A stretch of DNA of 64,000 bases from an uncultured bacterium (GCA_963829245.1 CAWHIM010000037.1:139414-203413), one strand, 5' to 3'. Counted from the first letter of the stretch, positions 37,558 through 41,322 are shown. Program-made: numbers and translations. Notes: a model not told the origin generated them from the letters alone.

Positions 37558-37795
37558 ATGAAGACGGAAGACCTGGTGCCCATCACTCTCGTGTGTATTT
37601 CGTGCCGCGCGGAGCAAGTGATTCGGATCCCTCGTAAGCGTGGGATCAAGCCCGGCAGGTATTCTCTGGGAATGCTTCGCGTGCCAGGAGAAGCGCTACG
37701 GGTTCTTGGGCGACGGCCGGAAGAAGGGTTCCAAAGGGGAACGAGCAGGTAGAGGCGGCAACGGACGACGAATGGAGGAACAGGAGAAGACATGA
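37558..37795 (+). CDS. small putative zinc-ribbon protein. Requires one frame correction near ~37670.
   Basis: CISC..(x26)..CFAC (two CxxC pairs) once the frame is corrected. Its TGA (37793-37795) overlaps ATG 37792 of the next gene. Confidence 0.35.
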
Positions 37796-38737
37796 CCACG
37801 ACGAATCGCATGACCACGCTGGCGGACCTGGAGATCGGCAACCCGAAGACGGTTCTGAACCTGACGGCGGTGCCCCTCTCGGGGAATCCCGCCTCTACGC
37901 TCGACTACCTGCTGATCGACGAGGCCCTCGAGACGAAGAAGGTGATCGTCGAGGAGGTGAGCGAGGGCGGGTCGGTCCCGGAACTGCGGATGACGAACTT
38001 CGCGAACAAGTGCGTCCTGATCGTCGACGGCACGGAGCTGGTCGGCGCCAAGCAGAACCGGATCGTCAACGCGTCGTTCCTCATCCCGCCCGAGTCGGTC
38101 ACGAGGATCCCCGTCTCCTGCGTGGAGCAGGGGCGGTGGGGGTACAAGGGGCGCGAGTTCGGGGCGAGCAAGCACTTCTCGCCGCACAGGATCCGGCGGG
38201 GCAACGCCGAGTTCCACAAGACCACGCTTCAGCAGAACCGCGGGTACGCCACGGAGCAGGGGAAGGTCTGGGAGCACGTGAAGGTACATGTCCCACCAGA
38301 TGGCGGCGCCCACGATGACCGGCGCGATGAACGACGTCCTCGAACAGCGGGAAGGCTCCATCGAAGAGTACCGGAAGGGGATCTCCCTGGAAGGGACGTG
38401 GACCGGGGCGGCGTTCTTCGTCAACGGGATCTTCCAGGGGATTGAGCTGTTCGACCGGGAGGCGACGTTCGGGAAGATGTTCCCCAAGCTCCTCTCCGGG
38501 GTCGCCGTGGAGGCGATGATGGCGCAGGGGCAAAAGCTTTCCGCCCGCCGGGCGAAGAAGCCGGAAGAAACGATGAAGTACGTACATCGGATCCTGGCCG
38601 AGGTGTCGAAGTCGCTCTTCGAGAAGTTCGAGCCGGTGGGGATGGGCGAGGACTGGCGGTACGACGGGAAGCGGTCGTTCGGGAAGGCGCTGCACTACGG
38701 GCCGGACCTGATCCACTTCTCCGCGTTCGGGAAATAA
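37792..38737 (+). CDS. conserved hypothetical protein, DUF6569 / ARPP-1-like (name from memory). One frameshift near ~38280.
   Basis: NLTAVPL...YLLIDEALETKKVIVEEVSEGGSVPELRMTN...LIVDGTELVGAKQNRIVNASFLIP...IPVSCVEQGRW. ORFs 37792 and 38288 join. Confidence 0.55.
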
Positions 38738-38847
38738 CCGGAAGGAAACAGGGGGGTGGGTCGTGTATATCGGCCCACTCCCGTTCGATTCGGAAATACA
38801 ATAGGCCTACGGAATGTGCGTACCGATCCCGGTCGATGGAGGGGTAG

Positions 38848-40345
38848 ATGTCCCCGCCTGACAAGTCCGCCTACCTGAGCAAGTCGCTCTACACCCGTGG
38901 GCTCCAGTGCCACAAATCCCTGTATCTCCACAAATACCAGCCGGAACTCCGGGGGGAACCGACGCCGGAGCTCGAGGCGCTCTGGAAAAGCGGGCACGAG
39001 GTCGGCGATTTCGCGCACATGCTGTTTCCCGGAGGGGTGATCGTACCCTTCGACGGGCTGACCAAGGACGAGCAGCTGGCGAAGACCCGCGAGGAGATCG
39101 ACCGCGGTACGAAGGCCATCTACGAGGCGACCTTCTCCTTTGACGACGTCTTCGTGAAGGCGGACATCATCGTCCGGAACCGCGGCTACTGGGACCTGTA
39201 CGAGGTGAAGAGCTCCACCTCCGTGAAGGAGCATCACTGGGACGACGTCGCGGTCCAGTATTACGTCCTCTCCGGATGCGGGCTCCCCATCAACAAGGCG
39301 TATCTCGTGCACATCAACAACGGCTACGTGCGGGACGGGGACATCGTCCCGGAGGAGCTGTTCGTCCTCCAGGACATCACCGGAATCGTGAAGGAAAAGC
39401 AGGCGTCCATCCCGGAAGAGCTGGCCGAGATGCGGGCGATGCTGCGGGGCAAGGTGCCGAAGATCGACATCGGGCCCCATTGCGAGGACCCGTACCCATG
39501 CGACTTCATGGACCACTGCTGGCAGCACGTGCCCGAGCATTCCGTCTTCTCCCTGCGGGGGCGTGGGATCGACCAGTGGGAGCTGTACCGCCAGGGAGTC
39601 ATCAAGCTGCAGGATGTCCCGCTCGATTCGCTGAACCTGATGCAGAGGATGCAGGCCGAGTATTTCCTGGACAGGAAGTCGCACGCGGATCCCGCGAAGA
39701 TCCGGGAGTTCCTCAAGAAGGTCCGGTATCCGGTCTGCTTCCTCGACTTCGAGACGTTCGGCTCGGGCATCCCGCTGTTCGACGGGACCCGGCCGTACCA
39801 GCAGGTGCCGTTCCAATACTCCCTGCACCGCATCGACGCGGAAGGGGAGGAGGCAAGGCACTTCGAATACCTGGCGCAGCCCGGCGTGGACCCCCGGAAG
39901 GAGATCGCGGAAGAGCGCTGGTCGCGAGATCCCCGAAGGGGCGTGCGTGATCGCCTACAACATGGGTTTCGAGAAACGGGTGCTGAGGGAACTGGGGGAA
40001 TCCATCCCGACCCTCCGCAAACGCCTGAACGCGGTCACCGAGGGGATGATCGACCTGATGGAGCCGTTCAAGAGGCGGGACATCTACGACTGGCAGATGA
40101 ACGGATCGTACTCGCTGAAATCCGTCCTGCCGGTCCTCGTGCCGGAGATGACGTACAAAGATCTGGAGATCAGCGACGGGGCGATGGCGTCGGAGGCGTA
40201 CTTCACCATGGAAACCATCGCGGACCCTGCGGAGCTGTCCCGGCTGCGCAAGGCGTTGCTGGAATATTGCAAACAGGACACCTTGGGGCTCGTCCGTCTG
40301 CTGGAGAAGATGCGGGCCATGGAGGCGGCGGATGGTAAAGGGTAA
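38848..40345 (+). CDS. DUF2779-type protein: N-terminal Cas4/RecB-like PD-(D/E)XK nuclease with Cys cluster plus C-terminal DnaQ-like (DEDD) exonuclease fold. One frameshift near ~39930.
   Basis: LQCHKSLY, DLYEVKSS (D..ExK), CEDPYPCDFMDHC (Cys cluster), FLDFETF (Exo I-like DxE), AYNMGFEKRVL and YCKQDTLGLV. Confidence 0.7.
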
Positions 40346-40424
40346 GAGGAACGGGAAGGGGGCGCCGGGGAGGCGTGCCGTGGCCCGGCCTCGATGAACA
40401 AGCCCGCCATGATGGACTGGGCGC

Positions 40425-41322
40425 TTGCGGCTGCTTCGGCTCCTGAACGAGCGCAAGGTGCTCAACTCCCGGATCGTGGCGGAGGAGTTCGACGTTAACA
40501 TCCGCACCGCGCAGCGGTACCTCCTGTACCTCTCCAGCCTGCCGTGCGTCGTGGTCGACGAGGAGCAGCACACCTATTCGCTTACCTCGGACTACGTCAT
40601 CACCGACAAGATCCTGAACACCTCCGAGATGTCCCTGGTGTGCGCCCTGATCGACTACGCGACCCACATCTTCGGTAAGGAGCACTCGAAGTTCCTGGCG
40701 GGGCTGAAGAACCGGATCTTCCGGATGCCCGACGTCTACCAGATCGTCAAGGACGAGGCGATCGACATGGAGAAGGTGGCGGGCGTCCAGCTGGCGGCTG
40801 GAGCGGCACATCAAGGCCCGCGAGGTGATCTCCTTCCTTTACCGGCGGTCCGGGAAGCGGTACACGGTGGAGCCGTGCAAGATCCTCTACCACGGCGGTT
40901 TCTGGTACCTGGTGGCGATGCACGACGGGATCGTGAAGAAGTTCCTCCTCGACTTCATCGAGGGGATCCGCGCCACGGGGCGGGCCTGCAGGGAGATCCC
41001 GGAGTCCGTCCGGAAGACCTTGTCGGACGCGCAGAGCATCTGGTTCCAGGAAAAGGCGCCGGACCGGGTGACGGTCGAGTTCGACGCGGAGGTCGCCCAC
41101 TTCTTCGAGCGGAAGAGCATCTTCCCCCGCCAGGAGATCGTCCGGAAGGAGAAGGACGGGAAGATCGTCGTCTCCTTCGACGTCCACAACGACATGGACT
41201 TCCGGGAGCACATCGCCCGGTGGATGCCGTACTTCCGCGTGCTGGAACCGGCGAGATACCGGGAATTTATCCGGGAGTTGGCCACGCTAGTGGCGACAAA
41301 GAACGTAAGCATCCCAATATGA
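40425..41322 (+). CDS. HTH plus WYL-domain transcriptional regulator. One frameshift near ~40790. The start could be the upstream ATG 40409 in another frame.
   Basis: RLLRLLNERKVLNSRIVAEEFDVNIRTAQRYL (wHTH). YTVEPCKILYHGGFWYLVAMHDG (WYL motif). Confidence 0.7.

Follow-up and report, generated by a model that had tools for sequence, protein, structure and literature searches.

Do four adjacent genes of an uncultured bacterium make up one defined system and, if so, which of its parts are constant and what might it do? The question is raised by a stretch of DNA (GCA_963829245.1 CAWHIM010000037.1:139414-203413; below, the window, meaning all 64,000 nucleotides of it) that carries, at positions 37558-41322 of its plus strand, co-directional genes for a zinc-ribbon protein, a protein of the ARPP-1 family (formerly DUF6569), a DUF2779 protein, and a transcription factor with helix-turn-helix (HTH), WYL, and WCX domains. 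An initial annotation, made from the sequence without database searches, took the four genes for a candidate novel conflict operon. Based on the comparison with related loci, we find instead that the conserved core consists of an upstream palindrome, ARPP-1, and the WYL gene, while DUF2779 is one of several alternative cargos inserted between the last two. The reading that we favor, with slightly more confidence than doubt, is that of an inducible cassette arranged on a conserved bracket, in which a DriD-type operator and an optional zinc-ribbon gene precede ARPP-1, and a slot for exchangeable effectors separates ARPP-1 from the gene of a WYL transcription factor, with a role in biological conflict.

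Conserved arms and an exchangeable slot

The window was compared by blastn with loci encoding close relatives of its ARPP-1 protein, and metagenomes were scanned for further close relatives (loci are numbered L001, L002, and so on). Similarity to L001 falls into two arms. The upstream arm (36269-38737, containing Phd, ParE, the zinc-ribbon protein, and ARPP-1) is 91% identical and the downstream arm (40385-41270, the WYL gene) is 97% identical, whereas the DNA between them is unrelated, amounting to 1.65 kb with DUF2779 in the window versus 6.5 kb in L001. In L005, a deltaproteobacterial metagenome-assembled genome (MAG) with a 95% identical ARPP-1, segment 38806-40391 is absent and ARPP-1 adjoins the WYL gene, the distance between the two being 142 bp both there and in L111.

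The content of this slot varies among close relatives with ARPP-1 at least 79% identical. It is a complete DUF2779 gene in the window, L086, L091, L094, L095, L120, and L121, and a DUF2779 remnant in L085, L102, L103, and L114. An AddB-like PDDEXK_1 protein (about 911 residues) together with an AddA-like UvrD-PDDEXK_1 protein (about 1055 residues) fills the slot in L001, L002, L006, L096, L098, L107, L109, L116, L155, and L165, and a Fic_N-Fic protein in L092; L005 and L111 have it empty. The AddAB-like pair, which brings helicase-nucleases of the AddAB/RecBCD type under WYL control in these sister cassettes, is absent from the window, where DUF2779 replaces it as a functional analogue. DUF2779 itself comes in two divergent alleles. 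The copies in L091 and L094 share only 76% identity with that of the window, in contrast to 96-98% for ARPP-1 and 91-94% for the WYL protein, and because of this difference between the cargo and its flanks (76% versus 91-98%) the cargo must have been exchanged or be evolving much faster than they are.

All close relatives with both ends visible possess ARPP-1 and the WYL gene. The order ARPP-1...DUF2779-WYL recurs in L086, L091, L094, and L121; L095 and L120, whose contigs stop short of the WYL gene, show ARPP-1-DUF2779. The linkage noticed in the window is thus conserved in at least six other contigs (four with the WYL gene visible), while the notion of a fixed four-gene system had to be abandoned, since the slot content is exchangeable and the zinc-ribbon gene optional. 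In L085, a DUF2779 gene 93% identical to that of the window has neither an ARPP-1 gene nor a WYL neighbor, but 94 bp from the 3' end of ARPP-1 are retained ahead of it as a remnant with 100% identity. At the junctions of the cargo, a repeat search revealed neither direct repeats nor sites of recombination, and the similarity of the flanks ends within tens of bases of the gene ends at the slot; together, these observations suggest that the slot is exchanged by homologous recombination via the conserved flanking genes. A GC-rich hairpin located 3' of ARPP-1 (12-bp stem, no U-tract, -31.8 kcal/mol, z -4.5) has a counterpart at the same place in L005 (-32.7 kcal/mol, z -6.3), and is common to the DUF2779-bearing and empty cassettes but not to the AddAB-type L001.

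Among more distant WYL relatives, we observed AddAB with a truncated ARPP-1 ahead of it (L171:2599-3039), AddAB without ARPP-1 (L172), and a solitary WYL gene (L170). Fragments of ARPP-1 lie directly after ParE or are scattered in L114 (3477-3644), L132 (3415-3576), and L119 (11458-11640 and 14891-15052). Decay and rearrangement are frequent at this locus. Small extra genes are sometimes present in the cassettes, encoding a 268-residue protein and lipoprotein-like proteins of 69-103 residues. The latter are paralogs with a lipoprotein-like signal (MRRVFLLLALTLSGC...) and are located by ARPP-1 in L086 (622-831 and 1927-2238), L001 (4953-5240), L101, L108, L154-L156, and L165; they have no Pfam match and are absent from the window.

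Operator and regulator

An alignment of the upstream regions of five loci contains one conserved island in otherwise diverged surroundings, namely the palindrome GCGACAG-N3-CTGTCGC followed by CCCGTATGCT or CCCGTATCGT. The palindrome of the window, GCGACAG-GAA-CTGTCGC, is perfect and is the sole exact copy there. It is conserved in L001, L002, L005, and L006, heads the operon with one mismatch in L086, and was present in every close-clade metagenome locus having upstream sequence (30/30). Its distance from ARPP-1 is 218-272 nt in the presence of the zinc-ribbon gene, 68 nt in those close relatives that lack this gene, and 486 nt where other small genes intervene. The exact box occurs in 4 of 29 WYL-linked ARPP-1 loci and in 1 of 53 non-WYL loci. 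Beyond the close clade, WYL-linked ARPP-1 loci do not generally carry this DriD-type box, and other WYL subfamilies presumably use other operators.

This box resembles the binding sites of DriD, a WYL regulator of Caulobacter crescentus. For DriD, the consensus ATACGAC(X)7GTCGTAT and the crystallized site ATACGACAGTTACTGTCGTAT have been reported (PMC10853764), so that the core CGACAG-N3-CTGTCG is shared with the box; in the window, the DriD-type core CGAC-N7-GTCG reads CGACAGGAACTGTCG (37520-37534). The -10-like hexamer (TATGCT or TATCGT in the five loci) follows the GTCG half-site after 11 nt in the window, as compared to the 10-11 nt read from DriD promoter oligonucleotides, and DriD sites lie over the place of a missing -35 element, with a constant spacing to the -10 element (PMC13004042). 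The cassette promoter likewise has no -35 hexamer, and a sigma-70 scan of 36200-41500 returned no canonical promoter. The ATG at 37558 lies 6 nt after the -10-like hexamer, and the transcript would therefore be leaderless or have a very short leader. No terminator was predicted within the operon genes, and an Rfam scan of the region from 19 to 46 kb detected no RNA family. Judged by its sequence, the palindrome is a candidate DriD-type operator of the WYL regulator. A second match to CGAC-N7-GTCG (GCGACATGTCGTGTCGC, 34637-34653) is located inside the RecQ coding region, and was rejected as an operator because the two matches found in the window compare with 2.24 expected by chance. In L107 (5854-9800), an SbcCD-like pair is directly divergent from a DriD-type box (compare window 30010-33858), and the box might also serve a divergent sbcDC promoter.

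The regulator matches the Pfam models WYL (E-value 1.2e-8) and WCX (5.4e-12), and aligns over its full length with other ARPP-linked WYL transcription factors (hhalign, 99.7%, 2.5e-26). A profile of these factors detects PafBC (2.5e-47) and DriD (4e-40) at full length, while its similarity to BrxR and CapW, the regulators to which the initial annotation had likened the window protein, is limited to the WYL domain (4e-9 to 3e-7). The same ranking was obtained by Foldseek with the AlphaFold2 (AF2) model of P0241, a protein 93% identical to the window WYL (pLDDT 76, pTM 0.35): DriD came first (1.6e-13 over 338 columns), followed by PafBC (6e-11) and BrxR/CapW (2e-7 to 1e-6). By profile and by predicted structure, the regulator is thus closest to the activators DriD and PafBC and not to the repressors BrxR and CapW. 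Its clade is small (77 proteins), and its contigs are often shared with ARPP-1 matches. In PADLOC, the window protein is hit by generic CRISPR-associated WYL models only.

The likeness to DriD (PDB 8TP8; PMC9186387, PMC10853764, PMC13004042), the top structural match, extends to the order of winged HTH, helical linker, WYL, and WCX domains, the operator core, the 10-11 nt spacing to the -10 element, the missing -35 element, and an Arg-Thr-x-x-Arg motif. In DriD, Arg37, Thr38, and Arg41 read both guanines of each half-site, and their spacing is preserved in the recognition helix IRTAQRY of the window protein, although the motif is common in the wider family of WYL transcription factors. On the other hand, the identity to DriD is only about 20%, with no direct sequence match, and DriD controls a dispersed regulon (didA, recA, recJ, bapE, and dnaG) and is encoded divergently from a target, whereas the window WYL gene is the last gene of a mobile cassette. 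DriD and PafBC are activators that respond to single-stranded DNA (ssDNA); by analogy, the WYL factor may also bind ssDNA as its ligand and activate rather than repress transcription. BrxR and CapW of the BREX and CBASS systems (PMC9122601) are comparable in that they are WYL regulators placed by defence genes in islands, with a ligand that is probably a nucleic acid. They differ in their lack of full-length similarity and in their linkage, as the operon contains no BREX or CBASS genes.

ARPP-1, the DUF2779 nuclease, and the zinc-ribbon protein

The ARPP-1 protein of the window, 96% identical to its relative P0001, matches PF20208 over nearly the whole profile (residues 13-313 on positions 2-297 of 297), with an E-value of 1.3e-84 and a score of 284.5 bits, the curated cut-off being 27. 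Across 80 homologs down to 35% identity, E55, G80, G85, P107-V-S109, E112, R135, and Q156 are invariant, C110 (PVSCVE) and Q88 (GAKQNR) are at least 90% conserved, and the GAKQNR motif is nearly invariant; the conserved residues concentrate in EEVSEGGSVPEL, DGxELxGAKQNR, and PVSCVExGRW. The structure prediction suggested for this protein in the initial annotation yielded a confident AF2 model (pLDDT 92.4, pTM 0.91) composed mainly of beta strands with helical inserts, and no structural relative: there was no significant fold match in the PDB (best E-value 0.045, TM 0.16) or among the viral predicted structures of BFVD (best E-value 0.047). As modeled, ARPP-1 has a beta-rich fold unrelated to characterized domains. 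The family is large: 7,485 of 8,000 candidates scored were matches, which amounts to more than 7,000 protein clusters, and representative genomes contain at least 599 loci. Among 2.9 million viral contigs there was one partial match. No PADLOC-DB v2.0 model matches it.

ARPP was defined by Iyer et al. 2022 (PMC9503650), the only paper on it found in our literature search. These authors reported a conserved Cys and Gln, both present in the window protein, and proposed that ARPP acts on sugar moieties, perhaps with a covalent linkage similar to that of SRAP. They described two-gene ARPP neighborhoods with HIRAN, a WYL transcription factor, or a deacetylase, noted restriction endonuclease and helicase modules that vary around a conserved core, and predicted a role in conflict. 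Along the same lines, we infer that ARPP-1 acts on the sugar moiety of a nucleic acid. The window agrees with their ARPP and WYL neighborhood in having both genes conserved side by side, and differs from their system centered on ADP-ribosylglycohydrolase (ARG) in that the cassette has no ARG, Macro, NADAR, or phosphatase gene; neither an ARG nor a rhodanese-phosphatase was found in the cassette or in the 4 kb of window DNA on either side.

We sampled the neighborhoods of 84 diverse ARPP-1 loci. As a recurrent neighbor, a WYL transcription factor was tallied at 25-29 of them; 29 have one within 10 kb, mostly adjacent to ARPP-1. The other recurrent neighbors are a divergent MerR-like regulator (10 loci), an XRE-HTH protein fused to an IrrE/M78 peptidase (7), an ARG-DSP-phosphatase fusion (6, for example L016), and a UvrD-type helicase (6). 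The MerR-like, XRE-IrrE, and ARG-phosphatase partners, the commonest ones outside the WYL-linked loci, suggest stress-inducible control across the family. Representative loci with partners other than WYL are L025:8955-9779, L065:8456-9838, and L016:1109-2644, with their clusters. In a locus of Thermodesulfobacteriota (L022:5863-16979), ARPP-1 is accompanied by two WYL genes, a divergent DUF2779, a double GGACT protein, a protein of the uracil-DNA glycosylase (UDG) superfamily, and UvrD; the UDG neighbor is suggestive of an abasic-site role for ARPP-1.

The DUF2779 protein matches PF11074 (E-value 3.4e-41) and RNase_H_2 (PF13482; 3e-7), and its N-terminal half matches Cas4 in PADLOC (1.6e-7), while a single-sequence search of the PDB found nothing. 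Invariant in homologs down to 39% identity are four cysteines (C21 and C212/C218/C224), the PD-(D/E)XK residues D106 and E119-x-K121, Q137/Y139, and the DEDDy residues D300-x-E302, Y371...E376, and Y474-x3-D478. We accordingly found the nuclease residues retained after frame correction. From these motifs, the protein is predicted to combine an N-terminal Cas4-like PD-(D/E)XK nuclease with a C-terminal domain resembling DEDDy 3'-5' exonucleases. Such Cas4-like and DEDD architectures have been described before (PMC3985635, PMC13621843), a DUF2779 protein of mycoplasma (MMSYN1_0389) is quasi-essential, and the DEDD domain of DUF2779 is related to the mitomycin-repair nuclease MrfB (PMC13621843). 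The window protein shares with the published proteins the two-domain organization, the D...ExK triad, and the DEDD acidic residues, with Tyr replacing the His of DEDDh enzymes; its clade keeps four Fe-S cysteines, unlike MMSYN1_0389, which keeps two. With CRISPR-associated Cas4 it has in common the four-Cys Fe-S motif and RecB-type nuclease motifs. It is not located in a cas operon, as its neighbors are ARPP-1 and the WYL gene; the cassette has no cas1/cas2 or CRISPR array within the operon, and no cas1/cas2 genes were seen in the related loci examined. DUF2779 looks like a general nuclease that was recruited into the slot.

The zinc-ribbon protein has the pattern C-x2-C-x22-C-x2-C, with CxxC pairs at residues 13 and 39 and an Arg/Gly-rich tail. 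Both pairs are kept in 23 of 26 distinct homologs, and no match was obtained in Pfam or PADLOC. Its gene is an optional cassette member. In L005 (9768-10004), the MAG closest to the window, the last cysteine is replaced by Trp (CFAW instead of CFAC), reflecting either a sequencing error or relaxed constraint on this small protein.

Reading frames and genomic setting

The features of the cassette and of the DNA upstream of it are collected in Table 1. Translations and Pfam searches bore out the four co-directional genes and the family identities first assigned (ARPP-1/DUF6569, DUF2779, WYL, Phd, and ParE), the ATGA overlap of the zinc-ribbon stop and ARPP-1 start codons at 37792-37795, and every motif quoted from the translations (NLTAVPL, EVSEGGSVPEL, DGTELVGAKQNRIVN, PVSCVEQGRW, DLYEVKSS, QCHK, CEDPYPCDFMDHC, FLDFETF, and GGFWYLVA). 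Of the two longer gaps, that of 110 bp between ARPP-1 and DUF2779 agreed with the earlier estimate. The gap of about 80 bp before the WYL gene did not: homologs place the start at the ATG at 40394 (MNKPAMMDWAL...) and not at the TTG at 40425, so that the gap is 48 bp (79 bp if counted from the TTG).

Table 1. Features of the cassette and its upstream region in the window.
Feature	Position	Strand	Basis
C5 DNA methylase, Mza-like	19854-21014		
MutL-like HATPase_c_3 protein, Mza-like	22022-23497		
Z1/MzaC, split by frameshift	23708-25995		PADLOC, E-values 1e-76 and 5e-58
Weak MzaE match	28562-28966		
UzuA homolog	29136-29738		E-value 1e-27
Phd antitoxin	36697-36966	+	Pfam
ParE toxin	36963-37262	+	Pfam
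Palindrome, candidate operator	37519-37535	+	Conservation, likeness to DriD box
-10-like hexamer TATGCT	37546-37551	+	Read from sequence and five-locus alignment
Zinc-ribbon protein, 78 residues corrected	37558-37795	+	Two CxxC pairs, homologs
ARPP-1 (PF20208, formerly DUF6569), 314-315 residues	37792-38737	+	Pfam, full length
GC-rich hairpin	38751-38782	+	Folding energy, shared with L005
DUF2779 dual nuclease, 498 residues	38848-40345	+	PF11074, PF13482, PADLOC Cas4
HTH-WYL-WCX transcription factor, 308 residues	40394-41322	+	Pfam WYL and WCX

When compared to intact homologs, the operon contains five insertions of 1 nt, one each in the zinc-ribbon gene (about 37662), ARPP-1 (about 38285), and DUF2779 (about 39922), and two in the WYL gene (about 40427 and about 40796). 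One frameshift per gene had been allowed for initially, and the second insertion in the WYL gene had been overlooked. Single-base insertions are the only defects seen within the operon genes. In the neighboring 6 kb (29960-36031), which encode SbcC/SbcD-like proteins on the minus strand and RecQ on the plus strand, there are 41 non-triplet indels relative to L127, a 92%-identical contig with intact genes. Because of these adjacent indels, the frame breaks of the operon are most likely assembly errors and not operon decay; with indels throughout, the window as a whole has the look of a long-read assembly left uncorrected.

A tRNA-Met gene (12985-13061), where the G+C content falls from about 0.69 to about 0.52 (0.52-0.57; 11000-13000), probably marks the integration boundary of a large island with defence genes and the cassette. 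It is followed by the DNA methylase, the MutL-like ATPase, Z1/MzaC, UzuA, SbcCD-like genes, RecQ, Phd/ParE, the cassette, IS3, and HigBA. An Mza-like defence system and a Uzume homolog thus precede the cassette (19854-29738). The operon does lie between the Phd/ParE pair and an IS3 element that abuts the WYL stop codon, and its assignment to island DNA was upheld by the Mza-like genes, UzuA, the toxin-antitoxin pairs, and IS3. Phd/ParE forms a separate mobile module upstream of the box. It is also found upstream in L001, L111, and L115. L127 has a zeta/ParD-like pair in its stead, L117 and L122 have HigBA, and L107 lacks the module, so that these pairs alternate as cassette flanks. In L107, SbcCD stands next to the box without RecQ or a toxin-antitoxin pair; because the blocks are contiguous there, RecQ and Phd/ParE have been inserted between them in the window.

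To characterize the surroundings at related loci, we surveyed 73 flanking open reading frames from 17 of them. PADLOC models of ZacC (E-value 0), DrmD (1e-214), and the BrxHI/BrxHII helicases were matched, as were BrxC/BrxD, BrxL, GmrSD, NERD, HerA, and DNA methylase in Pfam. Since the flanks match defence genes, the cassette recurs in defence islands, and here and in the related loci its surroundings comprise Mza, Uzume, BREX, DISARM, and toxin-antitoxin pairs.

Two further observations concern the flanks. HigA/HigB are encoded downstream of IS3 in the window (42695-43530) and directly upstream of ARPP-1 in other contigs (L117, L122, L114, L119, and L132). An 88-bp element upstream of Phd (36489-36576) includes a 23-bp tandem duplication (36504-36523 and 36527-36546) that L001 lacks. 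In inverted orientation, the element also closes the unrelated contig L085 (2-88), and it is possibly a small repeat or mobile element.

Proposed function and alternatives

In the mechanism that we propose, the WYL factor would be a DriD-like homodimer that senses, via its WYL domain, ssDNA or a similar nucleic acid arising when phages attack or DNA is damaged. It would bind the palindrome, thereby occupying the -35 position of a promoter with a -10 element only, recruit RNA polymerase, and switch on the leaderless operon, which ends in the WYL gene and would thus be subject to positive feedback. ARPP-1 would be the constant partner, a Cys/Gln/Glu enzyme acting on the sugar moiety of damaged or modified nucleic acid. 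The cargo would supply degradation of DNA ends, by Cas4-like and DEDDy activities here and by the AddAB-like pair elsewhere, or another toxic activity such as Fic. Its genomic surroundings suggest that the cassette takes part in conflicts with phages or mobile elements, and an anti-phage role may be envisaged. This view is favored by the fast turnover of effectors including Fic, the company of toxin-antitoxin pairs and insertion sequences, the location in defence islands, and the many decayed copies, and we also count in its favor that ARPP-1 is essentially absent from viral contigs.

Several observations weigh against this proposal. The AddAB-like cargo, the SbcCD and RecQ neighbors, and control of the DriD/PafBC type fit DNA repair equally well. 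Members of the DUF2779 clade (81% identical) occur in ordinary chromosomal contexts without ARPP-1 or WYL (L087-L090), and given these contexts and the quasi-essentiality in mycoplasma, the nuclease is not intrinsically a defence gene. There is no system-level match in PADLOC-DB v2.0, where ARPP-1 and the zinc-ribbon protein are without a model and DUF2779 has the generic Cas4 only. The WYL model is only moderately confident, and direct sequence searches of the window-clade WYL against solved WYL proteins in the PDB, with a single sequence and with a clade profile, returned nothing. The palindrome could also form an RNA hairpin, and covariation cannot decide between the two because the arms never vary; moreover, an operator over the -35 position is compatible with repression as well. 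Finally, every cassette gene in the window is frameshifted, and this copy is dead if the frameshifts are real.

The last point leads to the possibility that the window copy is a pseudogenized relic, non-functional in its host. In its favor are at least one 1-nt insertion in each gene, and real decay at related loci, as seen in the ARPP-1 fragments by ParE (L114 and L132), the DUF2779 remnants (L102, L103, and L114), and the truncated ARPP-1 of L171. We nevertheless think it quite unlikely, given that all catalytic residues are retained, that the operon genes have no defects besides single-base insertions, and that indels are window-wide and denser still in the conserved SbcCD and RecQ genes outside the operon. 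Even greater doubt applies to a chance product of mosaic insertion that left four functionally unlinked genes side by side, which we hold to be extremely improbable. The region is highly mosaic indeed, since insertions of RecQ, toxin-antitoxin pairs, and IS3 separate blocks that adjoin each other at other loci, and DUF2779 does occur without a WYL neighbor in L085. However, L085 keeps its ARPP-1 remnant before DUF2779, the gene order recurs in independent samples at 60-98% ARPP-1 identity, the distant L022 also unites ARPP-1, DUF2779, and two WYL genes, and the operator is unvarying in 30/30 loci, while differing flanks argue against a single clonal lineage.

The cassette logic could also be the same with the opposite regulatory sign, the WYL protein being a repressor of the BrxR/CapW type that sits on an operator over the -35 position and is released by a ligand. 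Many defence systems are governed by WYL repressors that react to ssDNA or to attack by phages (PMC9122601, PMC13622015), repression would suit an operator that overlaps the core promoter, and Foldseek matches BrxR and CapW too. We place this version on the unlikely side: DriD and PafBC match at full length with far better scores, the operator sequence and its distance to the -10 element copy the DriD arrangement, the regulator gene is last in the operon and not first or divergent, and weak basal transcription is expected without an activator because the -35 element is absent. Somewhat more credible, though we lean against it, is a non-SOS DNA-damage response operon rather than an immune system. 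Here a DriD/PafBC-like activator would sense ssDNA arising from damage, ARPP-1 would handle abasic or ADP-ribosylated sugar lesions, perhaps through SRAP-like covalent capture, and DUF2779 or AddAB would process the ends. The regulator and operator are closest to those of DriD, which like PafBC governs damage regulons (PMC10853764, PMC13004042), and a third WYL transcription factor, SiwR, responds to genotoxic stress (PMC10693628). The cargos are of repair type (AddB/AddA, and a DEDD domain related to MrfB; PMC13621843), DUF2779 is found in housekeeping contexts too, the box of L107 has SbcCD directly divergent from it, the window has RecQ as a neighbor, and ARPP-1 elsewhere accompanies XRE-IrrE/M78 (7 loci) or UDG-family and UvrD proteins (L022). 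Against a damage response stand the turnover of the slot between near-identical flanks, the slot being in some cases empty or occupied by Fic, the mosaic locus with its toxin-antitoxin pairs and insertion sequences, its presence in defence islands in many contigs, and a patchy distribution with frequent decayed copies (L085, L114, L119, L132, and L171). The conflict cassette and the damage response share one regulatory mechanism and need not exclude each other.

Conclusions

WYL control of defence genes is well known. The composition of the locus, initially thought to be undescribed, is only partly so: the pairing of ARPP with a WYL factor and the DUF2779 architecture were already published, whereas the ARPP-1/WYL slot, its cargos, the zinc-ribbon partner, and the DriD-type operator are, as far as we found, not described by Iyer et al. 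2022. We believe that the new elements are the defined effector slot with its catalogue of contents, the optional zinc-ribbon gene, the DriD-type geometry of operator and promoter, and the placement of the regulator within the branch of activators.

A bolder proposal, which we put forward with considerable doubt, is that ssDNA-triggered immune cassettes of a class not yet described have ARPP-1 as their invariable enzyme, which a DriD-like activator would switch on along with the effector present in the slot. The conserved Cys of ARPP-1 would become covalently attached to, or process, a sugar lesion or modification (abasic or ADP-ribosylated) on invading or damaged DNA, and so mark or hold this DNA for the plug-in nuclease, while the bracket would act as a recombination scaffold on which effectors are exchanged and the sensor and regulator are kept.

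ARPP-1 represents a large family with a confident predicted fold and no solved relative, and the cassette makes this family experimentally approachable through a 17-bp operator, a cognate DriD-like regulator, and effectors swapped in nature (DUF2779, AddAB-like, Fic, or none). With its homology arms fixed and its effectors exchanged as modules, the slot amounts to an experiment done by nature. The activator logic of DriD-type damage regulons may also arm mobile defence modules and, if this is true, the boundary between damage response and phage immunity would be blurred.

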